From Spirochaetaceae bacterium (GTDB taxonomy: Bacteria; Spirochaetota; Spirochaetia; DSM-2461), in NCBI GenBank assembly GCA_050031985.1, contig JBNAIG010000018.1, positions 28,781-92,780 of the forward strand: DNA of 64,000 nt, given 5' to 3'. The notes below the pieces were generated by a model, which was not told the DNA's origin, made no database searches, and saw only the letters and a program-made list of their open reading frames with translations. The first letter of the stretch is position 1; the number at the start of each line of letters is the position of its first letter. Made by a program: the position numbers and the translations under genes. Positions 10,128 through 62,438 of this stretch are shown here, one piece after another.

Positions 10128-11630
10128 TTACATCAGTTTGTTTCTAATCTCCGCACTTACGTAGTCCAGAATGGCTACGGTTACGGCAATGAACCAGACC
10201 GCAATACCGGCGCTCCGATAGTCGAGAAGCCGGATGTACTGTACCAGCAAGAACCCGATACCACCGCCTCCAACCATACCGATTACCGTAGACATACGCA
10301 CATTGATGTCCCAGCGGTAGATGGAAAAGGAGATGAAGGGCGATATCATCTGAGGGATGACCGCAAACATGATGGTCTGAAGCCGACTGGCCCCGGTGGC
10401 CTGAATCGCTTCGATCGGCCCCTGGTCAATGCCTTCAATCGCTTCGGAGTAGAGCTTACCCAGAGCAGCGATAGTATGAAGGGTGAGGGCAACGATACCC
10501 GCAAAGGGGCCCAACCCTACCCAGACAACCGCAATGAGTGCCCAAATAAGGGGTTCGATACTTCGCACGATATTCAGGATAGTTCGGGTCAGGTAGTAGA
10601 AAAACATGGTGACCTTTGAACCGGCCATAATATTACGGGCCGCAAGGAAGCTAATGGGTATGGAGAAGATAATACCGAATACGGTAGCCATCATTCCCAT
10701 AAAGATGGTCTCCACCATTCTGTCTATCGTCTGAAGGAGAGCCTCACTGGCTTTTAAGGGACCAACCGGTGTAATCTGGCGGGCCTCCAGGGTGTGATAG
10801 AAAGGGCCTTTCGCGCTGGGGGGAGTCAGCTGGTAGGGCATGGTCATCTCAAACTCAAAGCTTCCCTGACTGTCGGTGGTCAGAATAAGGTACTGGCCGT
10901 TTTCCCGGGGGCGGAATTCGTTTCCAATGGGGTCTTCCCACCAAATCTCCGTTTCCCTATTGGGCTCAAAACCACTTCCGCTTACCTTTATCCGGGTTCC
11001 GGGAACCATTTGGTTGTTTTTGTCGCGCTGGGAAAGTTCGCCAAAGTTCGGCTCACTCATGATATACGGCTGCCCTTCTGCTACAGTTTCCCTTACGGGA
11101 GCCTCGCCCTCACCGGCCAGAATCATGGCCTTGGCATCAAGAACTTCCGTGTCCCGTTCGAAGGCCGCATCCCAGGGCCACATGATACGGGAGAGGGGAG
11201 GAAGGGCTTCGGGTGCCTGTTTTACCATCTTTACCAGATCGATTTCGGAAATCTGCCATCCCTGGATAAAAAAGCCTATGAGGATTAGGGCAAATATTCC
11301 TGTGGAGGGTTTCTTTTTATCTTTGGCGCAGCGGTAGGCATCATAGATCCCCAGAAGCCAGAGAGCCAAAAGAATAAGAGAGGCCATAACCATAAAGGCC
11401 GGTCTTCGCTCAAAGGCGCGTACCAGAGCGGGCCAACCAACGCCTGCGCGGCGGCCCAAATCGGCGGCCAGGCTGTGGAGAATGGCTGTCATGGTTATAA
11501 AGGAGAGGAGAATGAGAAAACCCCGGCGGATTTGACGGGCCAGAGCCTGTCCCAGGCCGGGAACGACGAGGGAGGCCGCAGCGGCAAGAACCGAAGGAAC
11601 CTTAACGTTTATTTCTTTGTCCTGGCTCAT
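10128..11630 (-). CDS. phnE: Phosphonate ABC transporter permease PhnE with about 230-aa N-terminal extension
   Basis: The C-terminal about 270 aa carry the PhnE permease signature (EAIEGIDQGPIEAIQATGASRLQTIMFAVIPQ). The N-terminal half adds TM helices plus an about 150-aa soluble domain. Overlaps phnC by 4 nt. Confidence 0.8.
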   Translation of the reverse strand: MSQDKEINVKVPSVLAAAASLVVPGLGQALARQIRRGFLILLSFITMTAILHSLAADLGRRAGVGWPALVRAFERRPAFMVMASLILLALWLLGIYDAYRCAKDKKKPSTGIFALILIGFFIQGWQISEIDLVKMVKQAPEALPPLSRIMWPWDAAFERDTEVLDAKAMILAGEGEAPVRETVAEGQPYIMSEPNFGELSQRDKNNQMVPGTRIKVSGSGFEPNRETEIWWEDPIGNEFRPRENGQYLILTTDSQGSFEFEMTMPYQLTPPSAKGPFYHTLEARQITPVGPLKASEALLQTIDRMVETIFMGMMATVFGIIFSIPISFLAARNIMAGSKVTMFFYYLTRTILNIVRSIEPLIWALIAVVWVGLGPFAGIVALTLHTIAALGKLYSEAIEGIDQGPIEAIQATGASRLQTIMFAVIPQMISPFISFSIYRWDINVRMSTVIGMVGGGGIGFLLVQYIRLLDYRSAGIAVWFIAVTVAILDYVSAEIRNKLM

Positions 11631-12418
11631 GCCTTACCCCCTGTAATGGACGGACCGGCACTTACCCGCTCCGCCTCTTCTCCGTAAATTTCTTTAAATT
11701 CTTCATCGGTCATATTGCGAATGTCTTCGCCCGTACCCCGGTAAACCACCTTACCGTCTCGCAGGCCGATAACACGGGTGGCGTAGCGCTGTACCAGGTC
11801 CAGGTAATGGAGGCTGCAGATAACGGTAATACCGTCTTCTTTATTCAGTTTTTCCAGGTCTCCCAGGATGGTGTGGGCCAGAACCGGATCCAGACTGGCT
11901 ACCGGTTCGTCGGCCAGAATAATATCGGGCTCCTGCATGAGGGTACGGGCAATCCCGACTCGCTGCTGCTGCCCTCCGGAGAGTTCGCTGGCCCGTTTCT
12001 GGGCCTGTTCGGTCAAGCCGACTCTGTCCAGGGCAGCTATAGCCTTATCCCTGTCTTCTTTAGAAAAGCGATATGTCATTCCCTTCCAGTTATCCATATA
12101 GCCCAGACGGCCGGAAAGGACGTTATTCATTACGGAAAGCCGCTTTACCAGGTTAAAATGCTGGAAGACCATGCCGATTTTTCGGCGGATGGGGCGGAGC
12201 TCTTTGGGGCTCAAAGCGGCGATATCGGTCCCGTTCCAGAGGATTTCTCCTCCCGTGGGATCGAGCAGTCGATTGGTACAGCGGAGTAGAGTGGATTTTC
12301 CCGATCCGGATAGACCGATGATTACCAGGAATTCTCCCTCTTCCACGTCAAAACTGACACCCTTCAAAGCCTGGGTGCCGTCATCGTAGGTTTTTGTCAG
12401 ATTCTTGAATTGGAGCAA
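11627..12418 (-). CDS. phnC: Phosphonate ABC transporter ATP-binding protein PhnC
   Basis: Walker A GLSGSGKST, ABC signature [15 protein letters not shown], Walker B ILADEP. Sits between phnD and phnE. Confidence 0.85.
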   Translation of the reverse strand: MLQFKNLTKTYDDGTQALKGVSFDVEEGEFLVIIGLSGSGKSTLLRCTNRLLDPTGGEILWNGTDIAALSPKELRPIRRKIGMVFQHFNLVKRLSVMNNVLSGRLGYMDNWKGMTYRFSKEDRDKAIAALDRVGLTEQAQKRASELSGGQQQRVGIARTLMQEPDIILADEPVASLDPVLAHTILGDLEKLNKEDGITVICSLHYLDLVQRYATRVIGLRDGKVVYRGTGEDIRNMTDEEFKEIYGEEAERVSAGPSITGGKA

Positions 12419-23895: not shown

Positions 23896-25023
23896 ATGGT
23901 AGAACGTTTCCTTGCAGCCGATTTATGTCTTTTCCTCTTTTTTGTCCTATCCATGATAACCCTTCTTCTCTGGCAAAAAAAGGGAACCTGCTCCTATAAG
24001 GAAAGACTATTTATGGGGCTTTGCCTGAGCACTATGGCTATGCTGATTTTGGATGTGATTTTTCGTTTTACCGACGGCGGGCCCAGTAGACCCCTTATTT
24101 ATCTTGTCACCTGGCTCTATTTTTTGGTTGAGCCCATTCCCATGACACTTTGGCTCTGTTATCTGGATTATTATCTTTACAATTCCCGGGAGAGGCTGAG
24201 AAAGCGCCTCTATTACAGCCCCTTTTTTCTCATTATCCTTGTCTTCCTTGTGGTGAGTTTTTTCAATGGGGCTGTTTTTTCTATAGACGGGGAAAACTTT
24301 TATAGGCGGGGGCCGTTTGTTCCTCTTATCGTCAGCTTTAATATTATAATTCTCCTTGGCACAATTATTATTGCCCTTAGGAGAAAGCGAGACGTGGGGC
24401 AGAGAGTTTTTCAGGCCCTTGTCCTGTTCAGTCTTATTCCTCTTTTGGGGAACCTTTTGCAGTTTTTCTTTGACGGAACCATTCTTATTTGGCCCACCGT
24501 TGCGGTAGCAGTTACTTATGCTTTTCTCTTCCTCGAATTTCAGAGAGAGCAGAAGGATTACCTCACAGGCTTACTGAACAGGCAGCAGATTGACGATATT
24601 ATCCATAACCGAATCTCCCAGCTGGAAAGGAGAGGGGGATTTACCCTGGTAATGGTAGATATGGATGACTTTAAGCTGATTAATGACGAATATGGTCATA
24701 AGGAAGGGGATCGGGCCCTTGTTTTGATTTCCGAACTTATCTATTCCTCGGTACGCGCAGTGGACCGGGTGGCCCGTTTTGGGGGAGATGAGTTCGTTAT
24801 TCTTCTGGAAGAGGAGGATCAAGGGGAAGTGGAAAAGGTTCTGAGCCGTCTTAAGGAGCTCGTCGATTCGGAAAAGAGGAACAGGTCTTACCCCTATAAA
24901 CTGGATTTGAGTTGCGGCTATAAAATAATTCTTCCCGGAGAAACGCGCGGCTACTATGACCTGGTCCATGAGGCGGACCAGGAGATGTATCGTATTAAGA
25001 GAGCAAAGAAGTCGGTCTCTTAA
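23896..25023 (+). CDS. Membrane-bound diguanylate cyclase (GGDEF domain)
   Basis: About 6 TM helices, then LTGLLNRQQID...VMVDMDDFKLINDEYGHKEGDRAL...RFGGDEFVILL. Confidence 0.8.
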   Translation: MVERFLAADLCLFLFFVLSMITLLLWQKKGTCSYKERLFMGLCLSTMAMLILDVIFRFTDGGPSRPLIYLVTWLYFLVEPIPMTLWLCYLDYYLYNSRERLRKRLYYSPFFLIILVFLVVSFFNGAVFSIDGENFYRRGPFVPLIVSFNIIILLGTIIIALRRKRDVGQRVFQALVLFSLIPLLGNLLQFFFDGTILIWPTVAVAVTYAFLFLEFQREQKDYLTGLLNRQQIDDIIHNRISQLERRGGFTLVMVDMDDFKLINDEYGHKEGDRALVLISELIYSSVRAVDRVARFGGDEFVILLEEEDQGEVEKVLSRLKELVDSEKRNRSYPYKLDLSCGYKIILPGETRGYYDLVHEADQEMYRIKRAKKSVS

Positions 25024-26129
25024 TATTTGTACTTCATTCCCCCCATGAGGGAGAAATTTTCCCCGTGGAAGGTGTCGTTATCCCCCCCCAGAGCTGCCGA
25101 GGCGAAGCCTTGAAAGCTGAATCCCTGATAGACATTCCAGTCCGCTCCTATGGTTAGCTGCCCCGATTGGTCCACCGGCGACAGAACGGCCATGACCGGG
25201 ACGGACATTTTTCCCCATTCAAAGACCAGTTCCGGGTAGAGGTAGAGGCCGTAGGAATCGGCTTCGGCCTGTTCTTCCCACTCCCCCCAGGGATAAAGTA
25301 AAGCTTCCAGCCGGGCGGAGAGGGTTCCGCTGTATCCCAGACCAAACTGACGAAAAAGCCCGGCCGATATATTGACCGTTTCCCGGGTGTTCTCTTCCCA
25401 GTCCCCATTCTCAAAGGGCACAGCCAGGGAGGCAGAACCGTACCAGTCCACTTCGCCGTAGCCGTGGAGGCTCAGGTAGGGGCGGTGGCCGGTGACATCG
25501 CCGTCGGTTTTTTCCTGGCCCTTACAGAGGTAACCCAGTTCCAGATCCCCCCCGCCCAGGGAGCTGACGTAACGGCCGCCGGCGCTGGTCTGGGTTATGG
25601 TCGTTTCCTCTGCGCTGTCCGTATCGGTGGGATCTATTTCCGATGTGGCGGGCATGACTATGGCTTCCAGGTAGTTCCGGCCCATGCTGTAGCGGACCAG
25701 GGTAAGGAGGGCTGTGTCGTCCCGGGCTTCGTCGGCGGTCAAATCCACCGAGGGGTCCAGGCTGCCGTAGAGAACGTCCCCCGCGTTAAACACCTGGCCG
25801 TCTCCCCAGCCAATGCGGGTTTTCCCCATGGTGATCCGAAGGGAGGGAAATTGGACTTTGAGGGAGGCCTTGTCCAGATTTACCAGAGTCAGGTTGTCCA
25901 TGGGGATGAAATTCAGGGAGAGCTCCCCCCGAACGTCTCTGCTCCCGGTGGATTGAACGGACAGGTCTGCCGAGCCGCTTCCGCCGTAGCTCCACTCTTC
26001 TGTGGTATCTTCGTCTGTGTAATTATGGCTAAGAGCTTGGAGAATCTCCAGTTCCGCCGTTACTTGAGTTTCCGCCCCCAGGGGGAGAAGAGTTATTAAT
26101 GACAATAATAGGCCTATGTTTTTTTTCAT
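25020..26129 (-). CDS. Putative outer-membrane beta-barrel protein (hypothetical)
   Basis: Signal peptide MKKNIGLLLSLITLLPLGA (start at 26129; the track ORF begins further upstream in the GC-rich region). Alternating amphipathic beta-strand pattern, C-terminal ...GGMKYKY aromatic terminus. Confidence 0.45.
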   Translation of the reverse strand: MKKNIGLLLSLITLLPLGAETQVTAELEILQALSHNYTDEDTTEEWSYGGSGSADLSVQSTGSRDVRGELSLNFIPMDNLTLVNLDKASLKVQFPSLRITMGKTRIGWGDGQVFNAGDVLYGSLDPSVDLTADEARDDTALLTLVRYSMGRNYLEAIVMPATSEIDPTDTDSAEETTITQTSAGGRYVSSLGGGDLELGYLCKGQEKTDGDVTGHRPYLSLHGYGEVDWYGSASLAVPFENGDWEENTRETVNISAGLFRQFGLGYSGTLSARLEALLYPWGEWEEQAEADSYGLYLYPELVFEWGKMSVPVMAVLSPVDQSGQLTIGADWNVYQGFSFQGFASAALGGDNDTFHGENFSLMGGMKYKY

Positions 26130-26273
26130 CCTTTCCTCTGTTTTGCTGCGATGCGCCAGGGGGCGGCAGGGCGGCGCAGCCGGTCCTTCTGAAGGAAGGA
26201 CGGGAGCGAAGCGCACCCCGAAAGCACCCGGTCCCCCGCGAGGGGGAGGCGCCCCAAAAATACCGATTCGCTC
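26130..26273. other. GC-rich (about 70% GC) structured intergenic element between an FtsX permease gene and an OM beta-barrel gene
   Basis: Multiple hairpins (CCCCCGCGAGGGGG, TGCGCC...GGCGCA, TCCTTCtgaagGAAGGA) in a genome that is otherwise about 50% GC. No flanking T-run typical of a simple terminator. Confidence 0.4.
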
Positions 26274-27521
26274 CTAGGCGGCGCGGATCTCGTCGGTAAT
26301 GGGTTTCTTGATGATTTTGCGGACCGAGAGCCAGGTGACGCTCAGGCAAATGGCTATTCCTGCAATCAGGCCGTAGAGGTAGCTCGGGCCGTTCCAAACG
26401 CCGTGTATGAGGCCGGTAAAACGGTAGCCCATGTTAAAGTCCCGCATCATCCAGGAAAAATCCCAGCCATAGCGGACCAGGGGGATGTTGCCTAGAACGG
26501 CCAGAACCAGCCCCACAAAGGAACCCATAAGTCCAATCAGGATGGCCTCAAAGAGAAAAAGGCGGCGAACGGCGCTCTCCTTCATGCCCAAAGAGCGCAT
26601 CATCCCGATCTCCGGCTGACGCTCCATTACGGACATGAGCATGGTGTTGGCCAGCCCCACCGAGGCGATGATAAAAACGAGGAAGAGGATCACTCCGCTG
26701 CTGTAGCTGTCTCCTGCGGCCATCGCCAGATAATCGGCGGACCAGTCCCGCCACCCGTGGTATTCCAGGCCGTATTTGTCGGCCAGGGCTAGAAGGGCTT
26801 GTTCCGCCCGTATCTGTTCCCGGCGGCTCAGGGGCAGATCCACAAGCACCATGGTAGAAGCTCCTTCCATAGCCAGATAGTAGTCCGCCGTGTCCAGGGG
26901 AATAAAGAGGTAGGAACGGTTGATTTGGGCGTTCGGGGAGTTTACCAGGCCCACAATTTCCAGGTCCATCGCCTCCCGGGAGCCCCAGCGGTCAATCATC
27001 TGCAGGGTCAGTTCATCGCCTGGCTGGAGGCCCATATCCTGGGCGAGCCATTCCCCTATGGCAGCCTCTTCCAGCCCGGCTTGGGGGAAGCGTCCTTCTT
27101 TTAGGGTTTCCCGAATCCGGTTGACCCGGGTGTCTTCTTCCGGCTCCAGGGCGGTGACTATGACGGGAAAGCTGCCTCCCACTCCGGACCGGGTCACGGC
27201 GGTGGCGTCCCATTCGTTGCGCTTCACAGCCGGGATGCCCTTATCGGCCAGTTCCCTAATCAGCAGGTCCGGATCTTCAATTACCTCTTCCAGAGGCCGA
27301 TCCTTCCAATCCTCCCAGTATTCGGGGGTGACCAAACGGCCCTGGGACATCTCATAGTAGATCAAAGCCAGCTCCGACTCGCTCCGGGCCCCGATCAGCA
27401 GGGAATCGAGAAGGATGAAGCCTGCAATGCCCACAGCCAGAACGGCCATGGTAATGAGGGTGCGCCTTTTGTAGCGGAACAGGTTTTTGCCCGCCAGGCG
27501 TATAAGATAAAGGTGTTTCAT
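26274..27521 (-). CDS. ABC transporter permease, FtsX/MacB/LolC-E family (4 TM with large periplasmic loop)
   Basis: N-terminal LIRLAGKNLFRYKRRTLITMAVLAVGIAGFILL, a large periplasmic domain, and C-terminal FtsX-like 3-TM bundle. Start overlaps the stop of the LolA-like gene. Confidence 0.8.
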   Translation of the reverse strand: MKHLYLIRLAGKNLFRYKRRTLITMAVLAVGIAGFILLDSLLIGARSESELALIYYEMSQGRLVTPEYWEDWKDRPLEEVIEDPDLLIRELADKGIPAVKRNEWDATAVTRSGVGGSFPVIVTALEPEEDTRVNRIRETLKEGRFPQAGLEEAAIGEWLAQDMGLQPGDELTLQMIDRWGSREAMDLEIVGLVNSPNAQINRSYLFIPLDTADYYLAMEGASTMVLVDLPLSRREQIRAEQALLALADKYGLEYHGWRDWSADYLAMAAGDSYSSGVILFLVFIIASVGLANTMLMSVMERQPEIGMMRSLGMKESAVRRLFLFEAILIGLMGSFVGLVLAVLGNIPLVRYGWDFSWMMRDFNMGYRFTGLIHGVWNGPSYLYGLIAGIAICLSVTWLSVRKIIKKPITDEIRAA

Positions 27522-28252
27522 TAGAACAACGCCTCCTCCGTAAAGAGCCGATCCTCCAGTTCTATGTCTATTTTAATGTCATGGAGTTTCAGTTCCGTGT
27601 GGGAATCCCCCTTAATCACATCCCGGAGAATCATGTGGGAAATAACGAACTTGTCATCTACTTCCAGGTAGTCGAGCACCTCTATCGTTTTGAGGTGGAC
27701 ATCCCGTTTGGAGTAGTATTCTCCGTAGACCAGAACGTAGGACTCCTTGTTAATCCAGAGAATCTGCTTGTAGTAGGGGGCTGTCCTCTGCTTGGCGCTC
27801 AATTCCACCACATAGCACTCCTGGCCCTTTTTAAGTTCCGTCCCTTCCAGGGAGGTATAATATTTATCCAGAGTGTCATTCCCTTCGCTCACATCCTCGT
27901 AGGACACGTCGCCAAAAAGGGAATCTTTTAGGGCCGAACCGCTTAGACGAATGGTCTCTTCCGCATCCGGGTCGTAAAGGTACATGGTATCGTCCACGCG
28001 GAGCACCTTTTGGCCCGCTTCTTCCACGTTTGTGAATTCCAGAAGGAATTCCTTATCCCCCCGGCTCCAACTGTCGAAGGTGCTGGTAATATCACCAAAG
28101 CGGTCGTGGGAGATCATGGTTCCCGATGACGTTTGGGTGTCGAAGGACTGGAGGTCGTCGGCCTTTTCGATGATCTCGTCCCCTGTTATGGCGTAGAGGG
28201 AATTCAGGCTGAGGCATAAGGCGATTAAGGCTGACTTGGCTAGAAATTTCAT
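27521..28252 (-). CDS. Outer-membrane lipoprotein-sorting (LolA-like) periplasmic protein
   Basis: Signal peptide MKFLAKSALIALCLSLNSLYA. About 220-aa soluble domain with LolA-like beta-sandwich sequence pattern (COG2834-like). Embedded between FtsX permease genes. Confidence 0.6.
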   Translation of the reverse strand: MKFLAKSALIALCLSLNSLYAITGDEIIEKADDLQSFDTQTSSGTMISHDRFGDITSTFDSWSRGDKEFLLEFTNVEEAGQKVLRVDDTMYLYDPDAEETIRLSGSALKDSLFGDVSYEDVSEGNDTLDKYYTSLEGTELKKGQECYVVELSAKQRTAPYYKQILWINKESYVLVYGEYYSKRDVHLKTIEVLDYLEVDDKFVISHMILRDVIKGDSHTELKLHDIKIDIELEDRLFTEEALF

Positions 28253-28268
28253 GGTTGACTCCTTTTGT

Positions 28269-29516
28269 TTATATAGCCCTGAGGGCGTCCACCGGCTCGA
28301 TTTTCGCCGCCCGGCGGGAAGGGATGAAGGTTGAGAGGGAGGCTACGGCCACGGAGTAGACGAATACCAGGGCCGTGTTGCGCAGACTCAATCCCAAATA
28401 GAGATAGTTGGACATGCTGAATCCTTCTATGCCGTCCATCATATCTCCCATGGGGATGCCCGAAGTGCCTATTGAGAGAATAATCACTATCCCGATGACC
28501 ATACCGATCAGAGCCCCCAGGGCGCTGATGAAAAAGGCCTCCAGGAAGAAGAGCCGGGTTAGCTCTTTGCCCCGCATACCCATGGCTCCCATGGTACCGA
28601 TTTCCCCCATCCGCTCATAGATGACCATAATCGTCGTATTGATAATGACCGAACTTCCCAGGACAAAGAAGAACAGGGCGAACACGTTGTACACGTTCTT
28701 CCCCAGGTTCATCATACCCCAGATCAGGTTGGTTTCCAGCCAGGACTGAATAATTAGTTCCGGGAAGGCCGGTCCCTGTTCGCTGCGGAGAAGGGCGGCG
28801 GCCTCATCGGCGGTCATCACATCCTCATCTACCATAAGGAGAATTTCCGAAAGGGCGTCGTTCATAAGGAGCAGTCGCTGGGCCGTGTCCAGGGGAATAA
28901 GCACATGGGTGCCGTTGAGAGCTCCCACCGGGTAGGCCAGGAGTCCCACCACTTCCACGGTAAAATGTTTTTGCTGCCGGTTAGCCTTCATGGTAAGAAT
29001 GGTGATTTTGTCCGGTGTTGAATCGGTCAGGTCCAGCCCCATTCGCTCGGCCAGCTTAACCCCAATGACAGCTTCCCGCGATCCGGGGGTGGGGAATCGG
29101 CCCTGAATCAGGCTGTCCTCCAGCTCTTGGAACTCCTTCTCCTGTTCAAAGTCGACTCCCTTGCCCAGAACATTGTACTCCCGGTCTTCCCGGTAGATGC
29201 GTCCGGGGAAATTGATTCGTTCGGAGATTTTCGTTACCCAGGGATAGGAGGCGAAGGTTTCCGCCGTGGCGGTGGCGTTTTGTACCACCAAGTGGGAGGG
29301 GTTGAGCCGTTCGTATTTGTCAAACTCGGCGTTGCGAATACGAATCATTCCCGTATTGTAGCGCTGCTCGTTTCGGGCCATATCGTCGAGCATTCCGTCC
29401 ATCATACCGAACAGGAGGACAATGCTCATGGTGGCCACGGCGATGGCCGAGCCGGAAAGAATGCTTCTCCGCCGGTTTCGCAAAATGTTTCTGTAAGCTA
29501 TTTTCGCTAGTTTCAT
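28269..29516 (-). CDS. ABC transporter permease, FtsX/MacB/LolC-E family
   Basis: Likely start is MKLAKIAYRNILRNRRRSIL at 29516 (track ORF extends to 29651). Same architecture as the neighbouring FtsX permeases. Confidence 0.8.
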   Translation of the reverse strand: MKLAKIAYRNILRNRRRSILSGSAIAVATMSIVLLFGMMDGMLDDMARNEQRYNTGMIRIRNAEFDKYERLNPSHLVVQNATATAETFASYPWVTKISERINFPGRIYREDREYNVLGKGVDFEQEKEFQELEDSLIQGRFPTPGSREAVIGVKLAERMGLDLTDSTPDKITILTMKANRQQKHFTVEVVGLLAYPVGALNGTHVLIPLDTAQRLLLMNDALSEILLMVDEDVMTADEAAALLRSEQGPAFPELIIQSWLETNLIWGMMNLGKNVYNVFALFFFVLGSSVIINTTIMVIYERMGEIGTMGAMGMRGKELTRLFFLEAFFISALGALIGMVIGIVIILSIGTSGIPMGDMMDGIEGFSMSNYLYLGLSLRNTALVFVYSVAVASLSTFIPSRRAAKIEPVDALRAI

Positions 29517-29527
29517 AGCCTCGCTCC

Positions 29528-30784
29528 TTATGTGTACCTTAAACAATCGGTGATTTTCATACCTGTTAACTTCCGGGTAACCAAAAGGGAAATCGTTCCG
29601 CAAATCGCTACGCCGGCTACCAGGGAGATCAGGTAATCTCGGAGTATCCATACTCCGTACATCATCCCCGAAACGCGGTAACCAATTTTCATATCCTTAA
29701 GCAGGTTGCCGTAGTTTATCCCGATTTTTACCAGGATAAGATTGGCCCCGGCTCCCCAAATAATCCCTACGATTCCCCCTAGCAGGCCGATTCCCACCGC
29801 CTCAATCAGGAAGGTTTTGCGCAAATCCCCGTCGGTCATTCCCAGGGCCCGGAGCATACCCAGTTCCCGGGTTCGTTCGAACAAACTCATCAGCACCGTG
29901 TTGGAGATGCCGATGGCGGCGATGAGCACCACCAGGGAGAGAATGGCGTAGGCCGAGTTTTGCTTCCCCGCGGCGATGGCCATAAAGTCGGCGGCCCACT
30001 CTTCCCAGGAGTGAAATTCCGCCCCCGTGCCGGCGAGCAGATGGTGCAGTTTTTCTACCGATCCCCGGGGCGGTTGGGGGTTGGGGCCAAGGCTGACTAC
30101 GGCCTGGGTGTAGAGCCCGTCCATTTCCAGGTAGTCATCGGCCACGGTCAGGTCTATGAAAACTACACCGGTGTTCACATAGGGGTCGGGGCAGTCCAGA
30201 ATACCGGCCACTTCCAGTTCCAACAGTTCTTCGCTGCCGAATCGTGTTTTTACCCGTAAAGAGACAGGATAGCCTACTTGGGCTCCCATATCTTCCGCCA
30301 GCCACCGGCCCAGAAGCACCCCCTCTTCGTCGGGAGTCAGGAAATGCCCTTCCGAAACAACCCGATTCAGGTCGTAAACGTCACCGTCTCTCTCCGGATC
30401 GAGGGCCACCACTTCCACCGCCAAGTATCCCGACTCTTCCCAGGGCGCCCCCCGGAATATCAGTTCGCCTGTCAGTTCTATACGGGGTGTCCAGCTTACT
30501 CCCTCATCGGTCAGTTTTTGGCCCAGTTCGGGGGGGAGAGTTTCCTTAAGGGGGCGTGACTCCCGGTCTTCCCAGTAGGCCGGTGTTACAATCCGCCCCG
30601 AACCGCTTTCATAGCGCATAATATTGATGATGGAGTCCTCGCTGACCCCCATGAGGAGGGAGTCCATGAGGATGAACATCATAAGTCCCATAGCCACAGC
30701 GAAAGCGGTAATTATGGTCCGTCTTTTGTAACGGAGAAGGTTTCTGAAACCCAGTTTTACCAGCTTCATTTTCGGCCTCCCCAA
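29528..30784 (-). CDS. ABC transporter permease, FtsX/MacB/LolC-E family
   Basis: MKLVKLGFRNLLRYKRRTIITAFAVAMGLMMFIL..., large periplasmic loop, C-terminal FtsX domain. Confidence 0.8.
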   Translation of the reverse strand: MGRPKMKLVKLGFRNLLRYKRRTIITAFAVAMGLMMFILMDSLLMGVSEDSIINIMRYESGSGRIVTPAYWEDRESRPLKETLPPELGQKLTDEGVSWTPRIELTGELIFRGAPWEESGYLAVEVVALDPERDGDVYDLNRVVSEGHFLTPDEEGVLLGRWLAEDMGAQVGYPVSLRVKTRFGSEELLELEVAGILDCPDPYVNTGVVFIDLTVADDYLEMDGLYTQAVVSLGPNPQPPRGSVEKLHHLLAGTGAEFHSWEEWAADFMAIAAGKQNSAYAILSLVVLIAAIGISNTVLMSLFERTRELGMLRALGMTDGDLRKTFLIEAVGIGLLGGIVGIIWGAGANLILVKIGINYGNLLKDMKIGYRVSGMMYGVWILRDYLISLVAGVAICGTISLLVTRKLTGMKITDCLRYT

Positions 30785-30792
30785 TAGTCCCG

Positions 30793-31470
30793 CTAGCGGG
30801 TCTCGTCGCTTTGGATCAGCCCGTCATGAAGGAGGACAAGCCGTTTGGCATAATCCATCACCATCTTATCGTGGGTCGAGAAGATAAAGGTGGTGCCGTG
30901 CTTTTCATTCATCTCCCGCATTAGCTTGAGTATGTCTTCACCCGTGTGGGAGTCCAGGTTGGCCGTGGGTTCGTCGGCCAGGATAATCTTGGGGTTCTTG
31001 ACCAGAGCCCGGGCTATGGCCACTCGCTGCTGCTGTCCGCCGGAGAGCTTGTTGGGACGGCGGTTTTCCATCCCCTCCAAACCGACTTCCTTGAGGATAG
31101 CCATGGTGCGTTCCTTTATCTCTTTGTCATCCAGATCAAGGAGATTCAGGGCGAAGGCCACATTTTCATAGGCGGTGAGGACCGGAATCAGGTTGTAGCT
31201 CTGAAAGATGAATCCCAGAGTTTCCCGGCGGAAAAGGGCCTTTTCGTCCTTGTTCAGCTCAAAGACCGGCTTCTCATCAATCAGGATTCTTCCGCTGTCC
31301 AGGCTGTCAATGCAGCCAATCAGGTTCAGAAGAGTTGTCTTCCCCGAGCCGGAGGGGCCCGCTATGGAGATAAATTCCCCGTCGGAAATGGTCAGATCCA
31401 CACCGCGCAGGGCTTCTACTTCCACATCTCCCGTTACATAGGTTTTTTTCACTTGCTCGATGGTAATCAC
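30793..31470 (-). CDS. ABC transporter ATP-binding protein (LolD/MacB-ATPase-like)
   Basis: Walker [11 protein letters not shown]-loop, ABC signature [15 protein letters not shown], Walker B ILADEPT, H-loop STHD. 225 aa. Confidence 0.9.
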
Positions 31471-32534
31471 TGCTTTTTCTCCTTGCTCAAGGCCGCCGCG
31501 CCGAGGGGCACGCCCAGGTTCATCTGGTCCATGGCGGAGGAGGGCATCATCATAAGGGTGCCTTCCTTGGTTTTTAAGCCTTCATAAACCATGTTCATCG
31601 AACGCAGTTTAAGGGCCGTTTCGTTGTTCTTATATTTTTCCGAGGCGGCGTCAAAGTTCTCCGCCACGGCGATTTCCGCTTCACTCAAGATAATCCGGGA
31701 CTGCTTTTCCCGTTCCGCCTGGGCTTTTTTACTCATCGCATCTTCCAGGGCTTGGGGGATAATCACATCGGTGAATTCCACAGAGAGAATCGTAATACCC
31801 CAGGGGTTGGTTTTATGATCCAGGGCTTGCTGAATTTCCCGTCCCATCTCTTCTCTTTCGGAAAGGAGAGAGGCCAAGTCGTGCCGTCCTATGGCATCGC
31901 GCAGGGCCGTTTGGGCGGAAAGGGCCACCGCTTCCTCGTAGTTTTCCACTTCCAGAACGGCTTTTTTGGCATCCCATATCATCCAGAAGCAGAGGGCGTC
32001 CACATGAACGGGAACCGTGTCCAGGGTCAGGCTTTTTTCCGCCGTAAAATCGGTGGCCCGGATGCGGGTGTCCACATGGGCGGTCACTTTCTCCGCCAGG
32101 GGAATGATGAAGAAGAGGCCCGGTCCTTTGATTCTATGGAAACGGCCGAAGCGGAGTATAACTACCTTGTCCCAGTGATAAACCAGCTGGGTGGCGCAGG
32201 AGACATAGAGGCCGATTCCTCCAAAGCTGAGAAGGGTAATATAGTCCAGGCCGAATTCCTTGATTCCCAAGAGACCGGCAAAAAGGAATTCCATAAGAAT
32301 CGTCACACCCCAAAAGGAGAACACTGTCATTATTGCTCCGGCAATAAAGAAGTAGATAGACAGTTCCATCACCCGCTCAATATCTACGGGGAAGAAAATC
32401 AGCTGGACCAGGGCACCTATTCCCACAAACAGTCCCAAAACGAGCCAGGAAAAGGCGTTAAAGCTGTAATCGGGTCGGGGAAGCTTTAATTTGCTGTTCT
32501 TAATCCTTTCGCTTTTTTGTTTTAAGAGGTTCAT
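31467..32534 (-). CDS. SPFH/band-7 (stomatin/slipin-like) membrane protein
   Basis: N-terminal TM helices followed by the SPFH domain (KVVILRFGRFHRIKGPGLFFIIPLAEKV...DTVPVHVDALCFW...) and a C-terminal coiled coil. Overlaps the ATPase gene by 4 nt. Confidence 0.8.
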   Translation of the reverse strand: MNLLKQKSERIKNSKLKLPRPDYSFNAFSWLVLGLFVGIGALVQLIFFPVDIERVMELSIYFFIAGAIMTVFSFWGVTILMEFLFAGLLGIKEFGLDYITLLSFGGIGLYVSCATQLVYHWDKVVILRFGRFHRIKGPGLFFIIPLAEKVTAHVDTRIRATDFTAEKSLTLDTVPVHVDALCFWMIWDAKKAVLEVENYEEAVALSAQTALRDAIGRHDLASLLSEREEMGREIQQALDHKTNPWGITILSVEFTDVIIPQALEDAMSKKAQAEREKQSRIILSEAEIAVAENFDAASEKYKNNETALKLRSMNMVYEGLKTKEGTLMMMPSSAMDQMNLGVPLGAAALSKEKKQ

Positions 32535-32925
32535 TTTCTCTCATCTCCTGTAGATAGTTTATGACTTGATCCATATCAATGCCATAGGAATTCGCTTTTA
32601 CTATAAAATCCCGTGTCAGGGAGGCCAGGATCCTTTCTCGTTCCACGGCAGACAGTTCTATTTCCTTCTCTGAAATAAAGGTTCCCGTTCCCTGTTGGGT
32701 GTTTACCACTCCGCGGATTTCCAGTTCCCGATAGGCCCGTGAGATGGTATTCGGATTGATTTTAAGGTCCACCGCCAGACTGCGGACGGTGGGAAGCTGT
32801 TCTCCCGTAACCAGGCGCCCGTCGGCAATAGCCATTTCTACCTGAAGAATTACTTGCTTGTAGTAGGGAACACCGCTTTTGGGGTCGAGAGAGAAGGATA
32901 GGCTTTCAATTTCCTTTGCCGCCAT
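32500..32925 (-). CDS. GntR family transcriptional regulator (short, YtrA-like)
   Basis: winged-HTH GEQLPTVRSLAVDLKINPNTISRAYRELEIRGVVNTQQGTGTFIS. 141 aa. First gene of the SPFH/ABC/FtsX operon. Confidence 0.8.
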   Translation of the reverse strand: MAAKEIESLSFSLDPKSGVPYYKQVILQVEMAIADGRLVTGEQLPTVRSLAVDLKINPNTISRAYRELEIRGVVNTQQGTGTFISEKEIELSAVERERILASLTRDFIVKANSYGIDMDQVINYLQEMRENEPLKTKKRKD

Positions 32926-33018
32926 CGTTTTAATTTCCTATTTATATATTGTACTAATATTATAGTACAATATAAGTCTAGTCCGACTTTAGGGAATTGT
33001 CAAGGGAATGTTGCGGTA

Positions 33019-33672
33019 TTACTCGGACTTTTGGTGAATCAAATCCTGTACGCCAAAAGAAGAGACAGGAACTGTTTTTACCGAAGGAAAATCGTTCCGG
33101 CAGCTAAAAAGAAGATGGAGGCATTCATTAACAAGATTTTCGCCGCAATGATCCCTTTGGAAAATTATACTGGGATTGGTACAATTCATATGCCCCTCTG
33201 TTACGGTGGAGAGTGTGTCGGTAAAGCTCATATAGGACTTTTCCGCTTCCCGAATACTAAGACACTGCATAAGCATATAGGTTCTTTTGTTGCTCTGGAT
33301 TTGCGGGTAGTTGCGATTCAGTTTGTCTATGTCAAAGGGGATTCTCTTTGTGCTTTCGGACATGACCTGTTCTATCCACCAACTGAGCTCATCCAGATAG
33401 GGGGAATCCCTTCTATGGTGCAAATATTTTACGGCAAAAAGATTAGCCATGTGGTCTTCATAAGCTCCTCCCGGAGCGGTGTCATTGAGATTGAAATAGT
33501 CTCTCAATAGTTGACCGAAGGCATGAGCCACACCGAACTTAGGAAAATAAAAACGAGAGAACGCTCCGGCACAGGATTCGGACATTTTCATTCCTCGGGC
33601 GAATTTCTTTTTGTCCGTGGGAGAAATGTGATTCCAGGCACTGTATTCTATTGTGTATTGATTCATTGTCAT
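33019..33672 (-). CDS. Hypothetical protein
   Basis: 217-aa soluble ORF with good coding periodicity and several His/Cys residues. No recognisable motif. Sits 93 nt upstream of the GntR gene on the same strand. Confidence 0.4.
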   Translation of the reverse strand: MTMNQYTIEYSAWNHISPTDKKKFARGMKMSESCAGAFSRFYFPKFGVAHAFGQLLRDYFNLNDTAPGGAYEDHMANLFAVKYLHHRRDSPYLDELSWWIEQVMSESTKRIPFDIDKLNRNYPQIQSNKRTYMLMQCLSIREAEKSYMSFTDTLSTVTEGHMNCTNPSIIFQRDHCGENLVNECLHLLFSCRNDFPSVKTVPVSSFGVQDLIHQKSE

Positions 33673-35405: not shown

Positions 35406-36350
35406 TTAGTTGGGTGTCGTCTCATACTCAATAATAAAAGCGTAGTTCTGTCCGGGGGATCTGGTAAGACCGTAGGCTCCAACAGCTTCCATATAGTCTC
35501 CCCAGGTGGGAACGGGAAGGTTCATTTCACCGTAACCCATGATAGGCTGGCTTTCGCCGGAGTTGTTGGGCTGGGTATTGTCACGGGGGTCCTTGTCGGT
35601 TACGCCGTCATCCAGGTTTACCGCCCAGTTGGTCCAGTCCCATTCGTTACCGGAGAGCCAGAGCCAACCGCCGGCCGGTTCGGCTGAACCTTCAGGCTGG
35701 TAACCGCCCAGGAAGGGCCCGATGCTGATGCCGTAGTGGTCGCCGCCTTCTTCAAAGTGCCAGAAGTACTTGTCATCGTTAACTAATTCAAAAACAAAGG
35801 CGTTTTCTTCTTCCGTTTCGGGACAGGCCAGGTAACCGCCGGCATCCTCGGCCAGGTAAGCCGCCTGGTACCAGTTCAGGTTACCGCTTTTTACGTAGAT
35901 AACTTCGTAGTAGTGGGTGTCTCCGGCAGCGTTTGTGAAAGTTTCAACGGGAAGTCTTTCTATATCCACATCGGCGGGAAGCTCTTTCCAGGAAAAGGTG
36001 GGGTAGGTGGTAGGAACTTCGATACCGTTCAGGTTAAGGATGTACTGGTCTACTTCTACGTTTTCTTCACCCATGGGAGTCAGCTTGCTAAATACTTCTG
36101 TCAATTTGGCTTCTTCTATGCCGAGTTTGGCTGCGGCGTCTGCCATGTTGGCTGGACCGGCTTTGGGATCGCCCAGGGCTGCTTTCAGTTCGTCACCTGT
36201 AATGCCCAGTTCTGCAGCGGCATCATCAATAGTAAAAGGTGTCTGGGGTGCTGTTTCAACTGTTGTTTCCGTTTCATTGTTTCCCTTGGCAAAAAGGGTT
36301 CCTCCCGCAAGAAGGGCGAAAGTCATAAGAATAAGAAGTGTTTTCTTCAT
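35406..36350 (-). CDS. Secreted protein with C-type-lectin-like domain
   Basis: Signal peptide MKKTLLILMTFALLAGGTLFA (start at 36350; the track ORF begins at 36389). C-terminal part has a CTLD-like pattern (WYQAAYLAEDAGGYLACPETEEENAFV...GGWLWLSGNEWDWTNW). Confidence 0.45.
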   Translation of the reverse strand: MKKTLLILMTFALLAGGTLFAKGNNETETTVETAPQTPFTIDDAAAELGITGDELKAALGDPKAGPANMADAAAKLGIEEAKLTEVFSKLTPMGEENVEVDQYILNLNGIEVPTTYPTFSWKELPADVDIERLPVETFTNAAGDTHYYEVIYVKSGNLNWYQAAYLAEDAGGYLACPETEEENAFVFELVNDDKYFWHFEEGGDHYGISIGPFLGGYQPEGSAEPAGGWLWLSGNEWDWTNWAVNLDDGVTDKDPRDNTQPNNSGESQPIMGYGEMNLPVPTWGDYMEAVGAYGLTRSPGQNYAFIIEYETTPN

Positions 36351-36496
36351 GGTAATTCTCCTAAAATATTCGGGGCGGCGACTTTTCATTGCCGTTGCGC
36401 CCTGTTTGGGTTGAAATTGTTGAAGGAAATGTACTTTTTTTTATTATTTTTGCCTTCTCCGCCGACCGGGAAGAAAAAAAATGTTAAAATAGGGCC

Positions 36497-49077: not shown

Positions 49078-49686
49078 ATGGCTGGAAAAGGAAGGGCGAG
49101 GCCCGATCATTATACGCAAAAAGCCAAGAAAGAGGGCTATCCCGCCCGTTCTGTCTATAAACTGGAAGAGATCGACCAGAAAAACCGCTTGCTTAAACCG
49201 GGAATGCGCGTTCTCGATGTGGGGGCTTCTCCCGGCAGCTGGTCTCTCTATGTTATCCGTAAACTAAAAGGGCAGGGCCATCTGGCGGGAGTGGATTTAA
49301 AGCCTCTTAATCTGCCCAAAAAGTATCCCAACTTCTTCTTCTACCAGGGTGATATCTTCACGGAGGAGGCGGGCAACTTTCTGCGGGAAAAAGGTCCTTA
49401 CGACTTGCTTCTAAGTGATGCCGCTCCCAATACGAGCGGTAACCGTCTGGTAGATACGAGACGCTCCTACGACCTGGTGGAACTGGTTATTAATCTGGCC
49501 GATGAGCAGGTTGGTAAGGGGGGAGCCATGGTGGTAAAGGTTTTCCAGGGAGGCGACGAGGAAGAGCTCTTTGCTAAAATGGGGGAAATCTTTAACAAAG
49601 TAAAGCGTTTTAAGCCCAAGGCGGTTCGCTCCGAATCCTTTGAGATCTACTTTATCGGTTTGGACAAGAGGGAAGGATCAAGCTGA
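49078..49686 (+). CDS. rlmE: 23S rRNA (uridine-2'-O)-methyltransferase RlmE/FtsJ
   Basis: RSVYKLEEIDQKNRLLKPGMRVLDVGASPGSWS (SAM-binding) and ...DLLLSDAAPNTSG motifs. Confidence 0.85.
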   Translation: MAGKGRARPDHYTQKAKKEGYPARSVYKLEEIDQKNRLLKPGMRVLDVGASPGSWSLYVIRKLKGQGHLAGVDLKPLNLPKKYPNFFFYQGDIFTEEAGNFLREKGPYDLLLSDAAPNTSGNRLVDTRRSYDLVELVINLADEQVGKGGAMVVKVFQGGDEEELFAKMGEIFNKVKRFKPKAVRSESFEIYFIGLDKREGSS

Positions 49687-57097: not shown

Positions 57098-57823
57098 TTA
57101 TTTTGAACTGAATAGCTTATCCAGAGCTTTAAGCTCGTAGGCCGAAAGCTCCACCGGTAGATAGAGGGGTAGTTCCGGGCGGGCGGGAATGAGAACTTTC
57201 TGTTCCAGAGCCGCCTGTACGATCTCTTGGTAGTCTCCCTTTCCTATATAGCTCAGGCAAGGGCCCTTTCTTTCCCAATCTTTGTATTTGTCGAAGCTTT
57301 CCCACAGGGAAAAGTCCTTACGCTCCTTAAAGAGAGTAAAGTCGTGGAAGTTACGAATAATTCCTTCCAGAAGTACTGGCGAGATGGTATCTCCCGGGGG
57401 AAGTTCTTCCGTAGAGAGAATTATGACCGTCTGATCCAGACCGGGAAGCATAGGTTTAACAATAAGCCGGTCTTCCCGGGGAATAAAGGGGATCCACAGG
57501 GAGAAAGTGTCGTAAGACGTTCCCAAAGCCGCCCGGGCCCGCTCTTCATTGGCAAAAATCGCTATAAAGGGGTGTTTGGGAAAGAGTTTTCCCAGTTGTT
57601 TCTCCAGGCGGGCCGAATAGATAGAGGGATAGGCCGCCCAGATTCCCTTTTCCAGACTATTCTTTAGAGGAAGCATAGTTTTCCCCGGTTTGTGTCCCAT
57701 TAGGGCCCGTCCTCCGTCAAGGTAGAGGTCCAGGTAGCGGTTTCCCTTGTAATCGTATAGATGATAGTCCCGGCAGCGCTTTATAGGCGGCAGGCCGGAG
57801 GGTAGGTTATTGCCATTCGTCAT
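57098..57823 (-). CDS. Hypothetical protein with similarity pattern to the N-terminal part of class-III aminotransferases (truncated, no PLP-lysine region)
   Basis: HLYDYKGNRYLDLYLDGGRALMGH resembles the class III (e.g. GSA aminomutase) motif DxDGNxYIDY..SWGPxILGH. The protein is only 241 aa. Confidence 0.35.
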   Translation of the reverse strand: MTNGNNLPSGLPPIKRCRDYHLYDYKGNRYLDLYLDGGRALMGHKPGKTMLPLKNSLEKGIWAAYPSIYSARLEKQLGKLFPKHPFIAIFANEERARAALGTSYDTFSLWIPFIPREDRLIVKPMLPGLDQTVIILSTEELPPGDTISPVLLEGIIRNFHDFTLFKERKDFSLWESFDKYKDWERKGPCLSYIGKGDYQEIVQAALEQKVLIPARPELPLYLPVELSAYELKALDKLFSSK

Positions 57824-61369: not shown

Positions 61370-62438
61370 TTTTTGCCCATTGTATTTTTTTGGTCGCCAC
61401 TTCGCCCGCATCACCAAAGTCCAGTTCGACCCCGTTGATTTTGCCGTATACGGCGCCGGCGTTGGAAAGCCATAGTTCGATGCGGCTGTTTACTTCCACC
61501 CGGAGAGTATCCCCGTCTTTGTAGTATTTCTCTACCGCTTCGTCGTAGTCGGTTTTGTATCGGAGAAGACAGTAGCCGCGGAATTTAATATCCAGTGTGT
61601 ATCGTTCCCCGCCATTGGTTGAATAGATGAGAACCGGTTCCACCGTGCGGGACTGGACTCCCGAAGGAGCGCTGGTCTCAATTTCCGCCGTATCCAGGAG
61701 ATTGTCCGACTCTTCCCGATTCATTTCGCCCTGATTCAGCTTCTGGATGACAAGGATACCCCCGCCCTGGCTAAATCCGTAATCTTTGAGAGAAATACGG
61801 TAGTCCGGCGAATCCTGGAAGAGGGAGAAGAATTCCTCCTGTCCCAGGCTCAGGAAATAGCCCTGATGGTCGGGCGTTTCGTTGTTCTTCAGAGAGAGGC
61901 CGTTGCCCCGGTCGTTAATATTGAAAAGTACGCTCTTTTCTCCTTCTGTGAAAAGGATACTGTCCCCTTGGAGGAAGTGAAACTCCGAGATCTCTTCCAC
62001 AACGGGAAACTCCACGGCGGCGCGAACACTTTCTTCTACCCGGCTGGGTTTCTTCTTTTCCTTTTCGGGACGTTCTTCACCAAAGGGGAAAAGAAGGATG
62101 AAAGCCAGTGTCACAGCAATAACAGCCCCTCCTATAATCAGTATAAGGGGAGATACCTTAACTTTTTTCTTACCCACCAGAGCTTCAATGGGAGAGGGCT
62201 CTTCCTTGAGCTTGTGGTTCTTGTAGAGGGAAATTGTCTTTTCCGGGTCTAGTCCCAGGTAGTCCGCATAGGTGCGGAGGAAACCTATGAGATAGGCTTC
62301 GGCGGGGAAGTTTTCAAAACGCTCTCCCTCCAGATCTTCTATGTAGGACCGGGATATATTCGTTTCATGGACCACCTGATCCATGGTATATCCCCTCTCT
62401 TCTCTTGTTGTTCTTAACAGTTCACCCAATGCTTGCAT
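61326..62438 (-). CDS. rodZ: RodZ-like cytoskeleton protein (N-terminal HTH, single TM, C-terminal DUF4115-like domain)
   Basis: LGELLRTTREERGYTMDQVVHETNISRSYIEDLE (XRE-type HTH), TM LILIIGGAVIAVTLAFILLF, and a C-terminal beta-rich domain. Confidence 0.65.
   Translation of the reverse strand: MQALGELLRTTREERGYTMDQVVHETNISRSYIEDLEGERFENFPAEAYLIGFLRTYADYLGLDPEKTISLYKNHKLKEEPSPIEALVGKKKVKVSPLILIIGGAVIAVTLAFILLFPFGEERPEKEKKKPSRVEESVRAAVEFPVVEEISEFHFLQGDSILFTEGEKSVLFNINDRGNGLSLKNNETPDHQGYFLSLGQEEFFSLFQDSPDYRISLKDYGFSQGGGILVIQKLNQGEMNREESDNLLDTAEIETSAPSGVQSRTVEPVLIYSTNGGERYTLDIKFRGYCLLRYKTDYDEAVEKYYKDGDTLRVEVNSRIELWLSNAGAVYGKINGVELDFGDAGEVATKKIQWAKNESGQYELLLLHVY

Follow-up and report, generated by a model that had tools for sequence, protein, structure and literature searches.

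A conserved spirochaete operon joining an FtsX-type ABC machine, a LolA3-like carrier and an outer-membrane barrel: a candidate relay-export route

Gene order and conserved core of the locus

The locus described here lies in a 64,000-nt stretch of contig JBNAIG010000018.1 (forward strand, positions 28,781 to 92,780) from the Spirochaetaceae bacterium assembly GCA_050031985.1; this whole stretch is called the window, and positions are given within it. Eight open reading frames (ORFs) run head-to-tail on the minus strand from 32925 to 25020. They encode a GntR-family repressor, an SPFH protein, an ATP-binding cassette (ABC) ATPase, two FtsX/MacB-family permeases (FtsX1 and FtsX2), a LolA-like protein referred to as the carrier, a third permease (FtsX3) and a predicted outer-membrane beta-barrel. 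A sequence-only reading of the window had singled out these genes as a possible trans-envelope export system; its coordinates were verified, and gene calling done independently on an identical public contig of 12 kb returned the same genes. Homologues and that gene call agree in placing the start of FtsX2 at 29516 and not at 29651, that of FtsX1 at the ATG at 30769, and that of the barrel gene at 26129.

The first seven genes are packed as closely as that reading had described. Their successive junctions, from GntR to FtsX3, measure -35, -4, +23, +11, +16 and -1 nt: the SPFH start overlaps the GntR gene by 35 nt, and the FtsX3 start overlaps the carrier stop by 1 nt. A gap of 144 nt then precedes the barrel gene. 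GGAG-like ribosome-binding motifs are found ahead of most genes of the operon.

Table 1 Features of the operon in the window, and related loci (L numbers) with an extra permease or a TetR-family gene.
Feature	Position	Strand	Details
GntR-family repressor	32500..32925	-	141 aa; PF00392, 59 bits
Stomatin-type SPFH protein	31467..32534	-	355 aa; Band_7, 126 bits
ABC ATPase, MacB/LolD/DevA/FtsE type	30793..31470	-	225 aa; ABC_tran, 123 bits
FtsX1, A-type FtsX/MacB-family permease	29528..30769	-	FtsX 61 bits, MacB_PCD 28 bits
FtsX2, B-type FtsX/MacB-family permease	28269..29516	-	FtsX 65 bits, MacB_PCD 57 bits
Carrier, probably soluble and periplasmic, LolA3/TP_0789-like	27521..28252	-	LolA_like PF17131, 150 bits
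FtsX3, extra A-type permease, paralogue of FtsX1	26274..27521	-	FtsX and MacB_PCD
Intergenic spacer, GC-rich (68%)	26130..26273	-	144 nt
Predicted 18-stranded outer-membrane beta-barrel, unannotated family	25020..26129	-	AlphaFold2 model
Sigma-70-like promoter match, TTGACA-17 nt-TAGACT	32975..33003	-	consensus scan only, 10/12 matches
Putative GntR operator	32945..32974		perfect 12-bp inverted repeat TATATTGTACTA-N6-TAGTACAATATA
Loci with an extra permease	L012, L013, L017, L031, L037, L052, L056, L059, L068, L074		also the window, 26274..27521
Loci with a TetR-family gene	L014, L022, L030, L057, L062, L065, L070, L072, L073, L080, L081, L083		for example L081:5884-6663, ending at the ATPase start

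A scan with the carrier against one genome per species returned 145 relatives among 185,579 species genomes. All related-locus analyses below use the best 80 of these 145 matches, with ORFs assigned by BLAST to the window proteins. Since the same gene order recurs in these 80 species-level genomes, the eight-gene arrangement is far from chance. The best 80 matches all belong to Spirochaetota (Spirochaetales, Sphaerochaeta, Oceanispirochaeta and Thalassospirochaeta) and all come from free-living lineages of Spirochaetia; Borrelia, Treponema and Leptospira are not among them. The full locus is present in cultured Sphaerochaeta halotolerans, and the barrel family in cultured Marispirochaeta aestuarii.

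A barrel gene comes after the carrier gene in all 74 loci that have room for it, usually with a start that abuts or overlaps the carrier stop where there is no third permease. The barrel, offered earlier as no more than a candidate component, is thus linked to the unit more firmly than had been guessed. An ATPase and two permeases lie ahead of the carrier in 71 of 72 loci, and the ATPase is 67-84% identical in the related loci. The conserved core is therefore an ATPase, an A-type permease, a B-type permease, the carrier and the barrel. Apart from a TetR-family regulator, described below, no further gene family is common to more than 12 of the 80 loci, and none of those seen is biosynthetic. 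Genes for a membrane-fusion protein or TolC are absent from the operon and are not conserved near the 80 loci, which favours a route based on a carrier over a continuous duct.

Permeases, carrier and barrel

The best NCBIfam matches of the ATPase are DarD (235 bits), DevA (223 bits) and LolD (217.7 bits), all under the respective cut-offs; that of the LolD equivalog TIGR02211 is 307.75 bits. All three permeases score above the cut-offs for PF02687 and PF12704 (61-74 bits for FtsX and 28-57 bits for MacB_PCD), FtsX1 passing the latter barely (28.3 against 27). Their hydropathy fits four membrane segments, the first and second being separated by a loop of about 230 aa. Domain content, hydropathy and an ATPase gene immediately upstream place them in the type VII ABC/MacB superfamily. 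The LolC/LolE equivalog TIGR02212, with a cut-off of 362 bits, is reached by none of them (FtsX1 58.7, FtsX2 115.1 and FtsX3 77.7 bits).

The permeases are of two kinds. FtsX2, the B type, aligns nearly end to end (residues 88-413) with solved LolF (4e-18) and LolE (3e-14), and by sequence is the most LolE/LolF-like subunit. Its identity to FtsX1 and FtsX3 is only about 24%, and it has not been duplicated in any related locus. FtsX1, the A type, has YtrF as its best solved match, with MacB and LolC next to it, all aligned over the membrane-domain region only; the periplasmic domains of the permeases share too little identity with LolC to be aligned dependably residue by residue. FtsX3 shares 40% identity with FtsX1 and 24% with FtsX2. 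FtsX1 and FtsX3 differ most in their periplasmic domains (36% identity, compared with 57% for the N-terminal segment).

The sequence-only reading had put weight on three permeases bracketing the carrier. This arrangement does not define the unit, as 43 of the 54 complete loci have two permeases and only 11 have a third, which is found at three positions: in the gap between carrier and barrel, in the gap between SPFH and ATPase, and after the barrel. In a neighbour-joining tree, calculated without bootstrap support and to be read as indicative, the groups of extra copies are placed separately and three of the four lie beside the A-type subunit of their own clade; FtsX3 itself is sister to the A subunit of its clade. 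The tree thus implies that the A subunit was duplicated independently at least four times, and the B subunit never. That the copy is always of the A type, has arisen at least four times and occupies three positions suggests selection for alternative A/B pairings. At one related locus (L016:850-3500) an additional pair of FtsX-type genes lies upstream of the GntR gene.

Permeases of this family need not transport anything. As far as the published account goes, FtsX-family permeases can be pure mechanotransmitters (FtsEX-EnvC, FtsEX-PcsB), and the Ytr system of B. subtilis, to which the best solved match of the A permease belongs, affects cell-wall synthesis and not antibiotic efflux (PMC12772383). 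An FtsEX-like force transmitter that regulates a periplasmic enzyme would, however, be expected to have a hydrolase or a coiled-coil activator, and no such gene lies in or near the operon in the 80 loci. The conserved partners are instead a protein of lipid-carrier fold and an outer-membrane barrel, and we give this explanation hardly any credence.

The carrier passes the gathering score of PF17131 and has the extended, open beta-sheet fold of LolA3-like proteins. Its model is confident and its closest structure is LolA3 of Porphyromonas gingivalis (9TP6), a protein with a hydrophobic groove that lacks the arginine of LolA and the leucine of LolB, barely binds LolB and has been assigned "a separate function" (PMC13103446). 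Deletion of lolA3 in Flavobacterium gave no gliding or secretion phenotype. The N-terminus of the carrier is signal-peptide-like; because a lipobox-like motif occurs in only 1 of 38 carriers, the protein is most likely soluble. The carrier is not a canonical LolA (PF03548). A separate gene of that family, which the sequence-only reading had pointed out at 62441..63127, is real, although it passes PF03548 narrowly (25.2 bits against a cut-off of 23.6); its product has no detectable sequence similarity to the carrier. This gene heads a close-packed, same-strand run at 57098..63127 (minus strand) that also holds RodZ-like, MiaB-like radical SAM/TRAM and UvrD-type helicase genes and a 241-aa ORF without an assigned family.

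These results bear on the simplest explanation of the locus, a housekeeping LolCDE-LolA system with one permease duplicated. The likeness is substantial: both are type VII ABC systems with two different FtsX-type permeases, one ATPase and a soluble, open-barrel carrier of the LolA superfamily, and the NCBIfam lolCE, LolE and LolD models give best or near-best, though weak, matches. Nor is there a second lolCDE, or any FtsX-type gene outside the operon, within the 64-kb window. The scores of all four proteins nevertheless fall well below the Lol cut-offs, the carrier groups with LolA3 in the PF17131 subgroup, and a LolA gene exists elsewhere in the window. The operon is in addition under repressor control, always includes an integral barrel in place of the lipoprotein LolB, and has only 145 relatives among the species genomes scanned. 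We consider the housekeeping explanation highly improbable, and the earlier view that the unit is distinct from the Lol pathway is upheld.

The last member of the core had been predicted to be an outer-membrane beta-barrel, and its AlphaFold2 model bears this out: the fold has about 18 strands, is confident (mean predicted local distance difference test score, pLDDT, 89.7) and follows a signal-peptide-like N-terminus. Of 37 family members, 35 end in F or Y. In structure the protein falls into the class of ChiP, AlgE, Occ and Wzi, and it is not of the 16-stranded Omp85/BamA-TamA type to which Borrelia BBJ25 belongs. No sequence match was found in Pfam, NCBIfam or the PDB. All homologues are spirochaetal, cultured Marispirochaeta included; they lack Pfam domains and carry the annotation "hypothetical". 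An exhaustive profile search recovered only 410 representative clusters among 1.84 billion proteins, and a profile search of a word-indexed database added no members beyond the family. At one related locus a second barrel paralogue lies about 3 kb downstream of the first (L029:14042 onward).

The most conserved element of the barrel is the loop between strands 5 and 6 (residues 95-125), with the motif RxTxGKxRxxWGxG..FN.GDV and conserved residues R98, T100, G102, K103, R105, W108, G109, G111, F114, N115, G117, D118 and V119. Classical porins carry an inward-folding constriction loop at the strand 5-6 position, and the conserved loop may be comparable in position to it. A link to the DUF1302 and Wzi families is suggestive only. 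The window barrel does not reach the gathering score of PF06980 (DUF1302) or PF14052 (Wzi), nine of the 37 family members match Wzi weakly (best E = 0.0012) and one matches DUF1302 at 0.14. An alignment of the conserved strand-5 motif with that of DUF1302 has very low probability, and hhalign gave 28% probability, in a comparison of single proteins, between the barrel and the protein that trails a similar gene set in Ralstonia (see below).

Control of the operon and its surroundings

The promoter-like match in Table 1 lies 50 nt upstream of the GntR start codon, and a palindrome begins immediately past its -10-like hexamer. The core of the palindrome, TGTAC-N10-GTACA at 32950..32969, is unique in the window, where 0.03 occurrences are expected by chance. 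The same core with a gap of 6-12 nt is present in the promoter region of 35 of 51 GntR-bearing loci, against a background of 2 in 882 kb, and upstream of the ATPase gene in none of the 14 loci that lack GntR. This is strong comparative evidence that the palindrome is the operator of the encoded repressor.

The GntR protein consists of a PF00392 winged helix at residues 22-84 and a C-terminal tail of about 55 aa, which we take to be a YtrA-type architecture. It has no effector domain, is encoded by the first gene of its operon and is preceded by a conserved palindrome, the predicted operator, as in the YtrA subfamily. In NCBIfam it comes nearest to the Rv1152 family and PmtR, without reaching either cut-off. 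In the Firmicutes modules MbrR-MbrAB, YtrA-YtrBCDEF and PmtR-Pmt, a short effector-less GntR protein likewise comes first in an ABC operon, and YtrF of the Ytr module is the solved protein that FtsX1 matches best. MbrR binds a palindrome in which G3 and C20 are critical, and is released through sequestration by the ATPase of its cognate ABC exporter (bioRxiv 10.64898/2026.02.18.706565). In the predicted 22-bp site of the window, TTGTACTATAATATTAGTACAA, positions 3 and 20 are likewise G and C, the same 17-bp spacing. The operon described here differs from the Firmicutes modules in serving a cell with two membranes, in having a repressor tied to a stomatin-type protein and in the exchange of this pair for TetR.

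The SPFH protein is closest, among solved sequences, to stomatin (1e-34) and QmcA (1e-26), with HflK at only 8e-8. Roughly four hydrophobic segments at residues ~30-117 are flanked on both sides by K/R-rich stretches, which by the positive-inside rule suggests that the SPFH domain is cytoplasmic. Typical prokaryotic stomatin operons carry an NfeD-type partner; none was found in the operon or among the conserved neighbours of the 80 loci.

The SPFH protein had previously been counted as a part of the transport system. Its distribution follows GntR and not the transporter: both genes are present in 51 of 65 loci, both are absent in 14, and no locus has only one of them. In 12 of the 15 loci without the GntR-SPFH pair, a TetR-family gene directly adjoins the ATPase gene; it never occurs together with the pair. 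Since the SPFH gene is inherited along with GntR, starts inside the GntR reading frame and has gone, like GntR, from loci taken over by TetR, we infer that it belongs to the regulatory module and not to the transport path.

The 144-nt gap before the barrel gene had been described as a GC-rich structured spacer. The composition is as described, but the spacer is not structured above chance, its folding energy being equal to that of shuffled sequences (z = -0.28). No Rfam match or terminator-like site was found in the spacer, and within the window it is unique and not a repeat. Over 119 nt it matches the corresponding spacer of the closest relative (L006) at 79% identity, a likeness that could mean an internal promoter or simply relatedness. 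The gap before the barrel gene is only about 11-60 nt in two other related loci (L007 and L009).

Several neighbouring genes lie outside the unit. Downstream, the gene for a GGDEF-domain membrane protein (23896..25023, plus strand) is convergent with the barrel gene, the 3' ends overlapping by 4 nt. Upstream, two ORFs of 217 and 327 aa without a Pfam family (33019..33672 and 35406..36389, both minus strand) flank a methyl-accepting chemotaxis gene. In L002-L004, the more distant related loci that were compared, neither the GGDEF gene nor these ORFs are kept beside the operon. A second ABC ATPase gene in the window (11627..12418, minus strand), whose product is 37% identical to the operon ATPase, is followed by a 500-aa ORF (10128..11630, minus strand) that is not FtsX-like by tblastn, and the two appear to form a different ABC system. 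A 740-aa protein encoded at 49647..51869 (minus strand) has weak matches to PEGA and to PQQ/BamB-like beta-propellers, and may be an envelope protein.

A candidate export route and its relation to known systems

Combinations of an ABC or RND pump with a LolA-like protein and an outer-membrane barrel have been described before (PMC13078400, PMC6394551). AmeABCD of Castellaniella defragrans, the one example of this design to have been studied experimentally, joins an RND pump to a LolA-superfamily protein and a DUF1302 outer-membrane protein; cells that lack it tolerate monoterpenes less well and accumulate more Nile Red (PMC6394551). Like the Pseudomonas clusters of DUF1302, DUF1329 and RND genes, it shares with our operon an inner-membrane pump, a LolA-superfamily protein and a dedicated barrel, and does without TolC. 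It differs in its engine, a proton-driven RND pump of the HAE3 family where the operon has an ABC machine, in its bona fide DUF1302 barrel, in an extra protein, AmeC, and in having no SPFH or GntR protein.

Carriers of the PF17131 family are found with two kinds of inner-membrane engine, MMPL/RND pumps and FtsX-type ABC systems. Clusters of MMPL, PF17131 and DUF1302 genes in Bacteroidota share the carrier type, for which the crystal structure 9TP6 exists, as does the pair TP0789/TP0790 of T. pallidum. In Prevotella the genes follow in the order MMPL, PF17131, DUF1302, and a TetR gene lies some way upstream within that stretch, so that both the carrier-then-barrel order and a one-component repressor are shared with our operon; a TetR, MMPL and PF17131 set is found in Haliovirga. 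The Bacteroidota clusters differ in their MMPL/RND engine, TetR regulator and DUF1302 barrel. In P. gingivalis a set of TetR, MMPL, lipoprotein-sorting-protein (PF17131) and hypothetical genes tops the list of loci induced by haemin limitation (PMC10470040). In T. pallidum, where TP_0789 gave its name to PF17131, the adjacently numbered TP0790 is an RND-type pump and TP0786 is LptB; TP0786-TP0789 was accordingly rejected as an ABC/FtsX/LolA-like operon.

FtsX-type ABC genes accompany a PF17131 gene in Aliiroseovarius and Ralstonia as well. The protein trailing the Ralstonia set weakly matches DUF1302, and of four trailing proteins examined three end in an aromatic residue and all four have a signal-peptide-like start. 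A stretch of the E. coli IncK2/Z plasmid NZ_CP060058.1 (L089, 13490-27942) encodes an ATPase, an FtsX protein, a PF17131 protein and a 399-aa hypothetical protein, together with ketosynthase-like, FeeM-like N-acyl amino acid synthase, TPR and crotonase genes; it looks like a cluster for the biosynthesis and export of a lipid or N-acyl product on a mobilisable plasmid.

Closer to home, an in-silico proposal for Borrelia BBJ23-BBJ29 has a non-polar ligand extracted and delivered to the outer membrane (PMC13078400). This spirochaetal set also combines an ABC ATPase, a MacB-like FtsX permease, a LolA-like protein and an outer-membrane barrel. It differs in its single, presumably homodimeric permease, its TPR proteins, its Omp85 barrel and the lack of GntR and SPFH proteins. 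Direct homology of the carrier with BBJ28 was rejected, as no Borrelia plasmid was matched (tblastn, E <= 1e-3). MacAB-TolC shares the MacB-superfamily permease architecture (FtsX plus a periplasmic core domain) and the type of ATPase. It differs from the operon, whose permeases are separate from the ATPase and are predicted to form a heterodimer, and in which a soluble carrier and a porin-like barrel take the place of the HlyD/MacA adaptor and the TolC duct.

We propose that the operon encodes a self-contained, self-regulated relay for the export across the envelope of an amphiphilic, probably acyl- or lipid-like cargo, a reading to which we give a probability of roughly 0.55. Two copies of the ATPase would power a heterodimer of A and B permeases, a type VII ABC "mechanotransmission" machine, and this machine would extract the cargo from the outer leaflet of the inner membrane. 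The LolA3-type carrier would take over the cargo, shield it across the periplasm and hand it to the 18-stranded barrel, which would insert it into the outer membrane or release it outside. Extraction, carriage and receipt are modelled on type VII ABC systems and proteins of LolA fold; characterised type VII systems, as far as they are summarised in PMC12646458, extract hydrophobic molecules or pass force outward. FtsX3 would offer an alternative A/B pairing, probably with altered periplasmic specificity. GntR would repress the operon by binding the palindrome beside the -10-like hexamer. Because GntR has no ligand-binding domain, its release would probably come through contact with membrane machinery, namely the ATPase, the stomatin-like protein or both, a mode of induction suggested by gene linkage and by the precedent of MbrR.

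Several points weigh against this proposal. The closest structural matches of the barrel include channels for water-soluble solutes (ChiP, Occ, maltoporin), an uneasy fit with a lipid cargo. The 80 loci have no linked biosynthetic genes that might point to an endogenous cargo. For the direction of transport the proposal relies on how known type VII ABC systems behave, and the regulatory role of the SPFH protein draws solely on co-occurrence and overlapping frames. The 144-nt spacer could hold a separate promoter for the barrel gene, which in this window may therefore not be co-transcribed with the rest.

The direction assumed above could be reversed. In an uptake system for hydrophobic nutrients such as fatty acids, sterols or haem-like molecules, the barrel would admit the nutrient, the carrier would ferry it inward and the ABC complex would insert it into the inner membrane. 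The induction of the P. gingivalis cluster under haemin limitation would fit such a role, and growth of Pseudomonas putida on fatty esters needs DUF1302 and DUF1329 genes (bioRxiv 10.1101/2020.07.04.188060). The structural neighbours of the barrel, too, include uptake channels. The loci have no importer-type substrate-binding protein, however, and no linked catabolic genes, and AmeABCD, the nearest analogue to have been studied, acts as an exporter. The type VII ABC systems described in the literature cited here include no importer, and we know of none elsewhere. Uptake therefore seems to us quite unlikely.

Export could, alternatively, serve the building of the envelope itself. The operon would then be a dedicated biogenesis route for an endogenous component, lipoproteins (perhaps surface lipoproteins) or a glycolipid, with the barrel as acceptor or translocon in the absence of LolB. 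Spirochaetes have no LolB, and depletion of LolA in Borrelia leaves surface lipoproteins undisturbed, which implies a second pathway (PMC11326224). With a B permease nearest to LolF and LolE, and with a carrier of LolA-superfamily fold, an acylated endogenous cargo can be entertained, and biosynthetic genes of acyl or polyketide type are found close to the analogous modules of ATPase, FtsX, PF17131 and hypothetical genes on the E. coli plasmid and in Aliiroseovarius. A dedicated repressor, GntR or TetR, is on the other hand typical of inducible systems, and neither biosynthetic nor lipoprotein-maturation genes are linked in the 80 loci, which come from free-living Spirochaetia and include none from Borrelia, Treponema or Leptospira. 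P. gingivalis LolA3 lacks the signature residues of both LolA and LolB, and an 18-stranded ChiP/AlgE-like barrel is not a known fold of lipoprotein insertases. We regard a biogenesis route as possible, if rather doubtful. Repressor control, the lack of linked biosynthetic genes and the patchy distribution lead us to favour inducible export or tolerance over bulk envelope biogenesis. A more specific and speculative version, which we hold to be unlikely, is a LolB-independent delivery pathway of spirochaetes. In it a second Lol-like extractor would pass acylated surface lipoproteins or glycolipids through the LolA3-type carrier to the barrel as acceptor or translocon, and the stomatin-like protein and GntR would form a membrane-tethered sensor that matches expression to cargo load.

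The trans-envelope export interpretation with which the window was first read is thus retained for a distinct unit that includes a barrel, and dropped as regards three permeases as a mark of the unit, a structured spacer and an SPFH transport component, and sister architectures had already been published. As that reading had supposed, no functional study of the unit was found in the literature searched. New are the family of 18-stranded barrels invariably linked to the carrier, the GntR-stomatin pair that TetR can replace, the conservation of the operator sequence and the recurrent duplication of a single permease subunit.

The relay-export proposal makes the transit of hydrophobic molecules across the periplasm and outer membrane without LolB, TolC or Lpt testable, notably in spirochaetes. 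The operon is a compact and very consistently linked parts list of extractor, carrier, barrel and regulator, and gives a functional context to the barrel family and to LolA3/PF17131 carriers. The strict pairing of a GntR repressor with a stomatin-like protein, exchangeable with TetR, may represent a new way to control a ligand-blind repressor. Pumps driven by ABC ATPases and by RND/MMPL proteins, each combined with a LolA-like carrier and a barrel, may be variants of one architecture. The cultured species that carry these genes, Marispirochaeta aestuarii and Sphaerochaeta halotolerans, allow direct tests of the cargo and of its hand-over.

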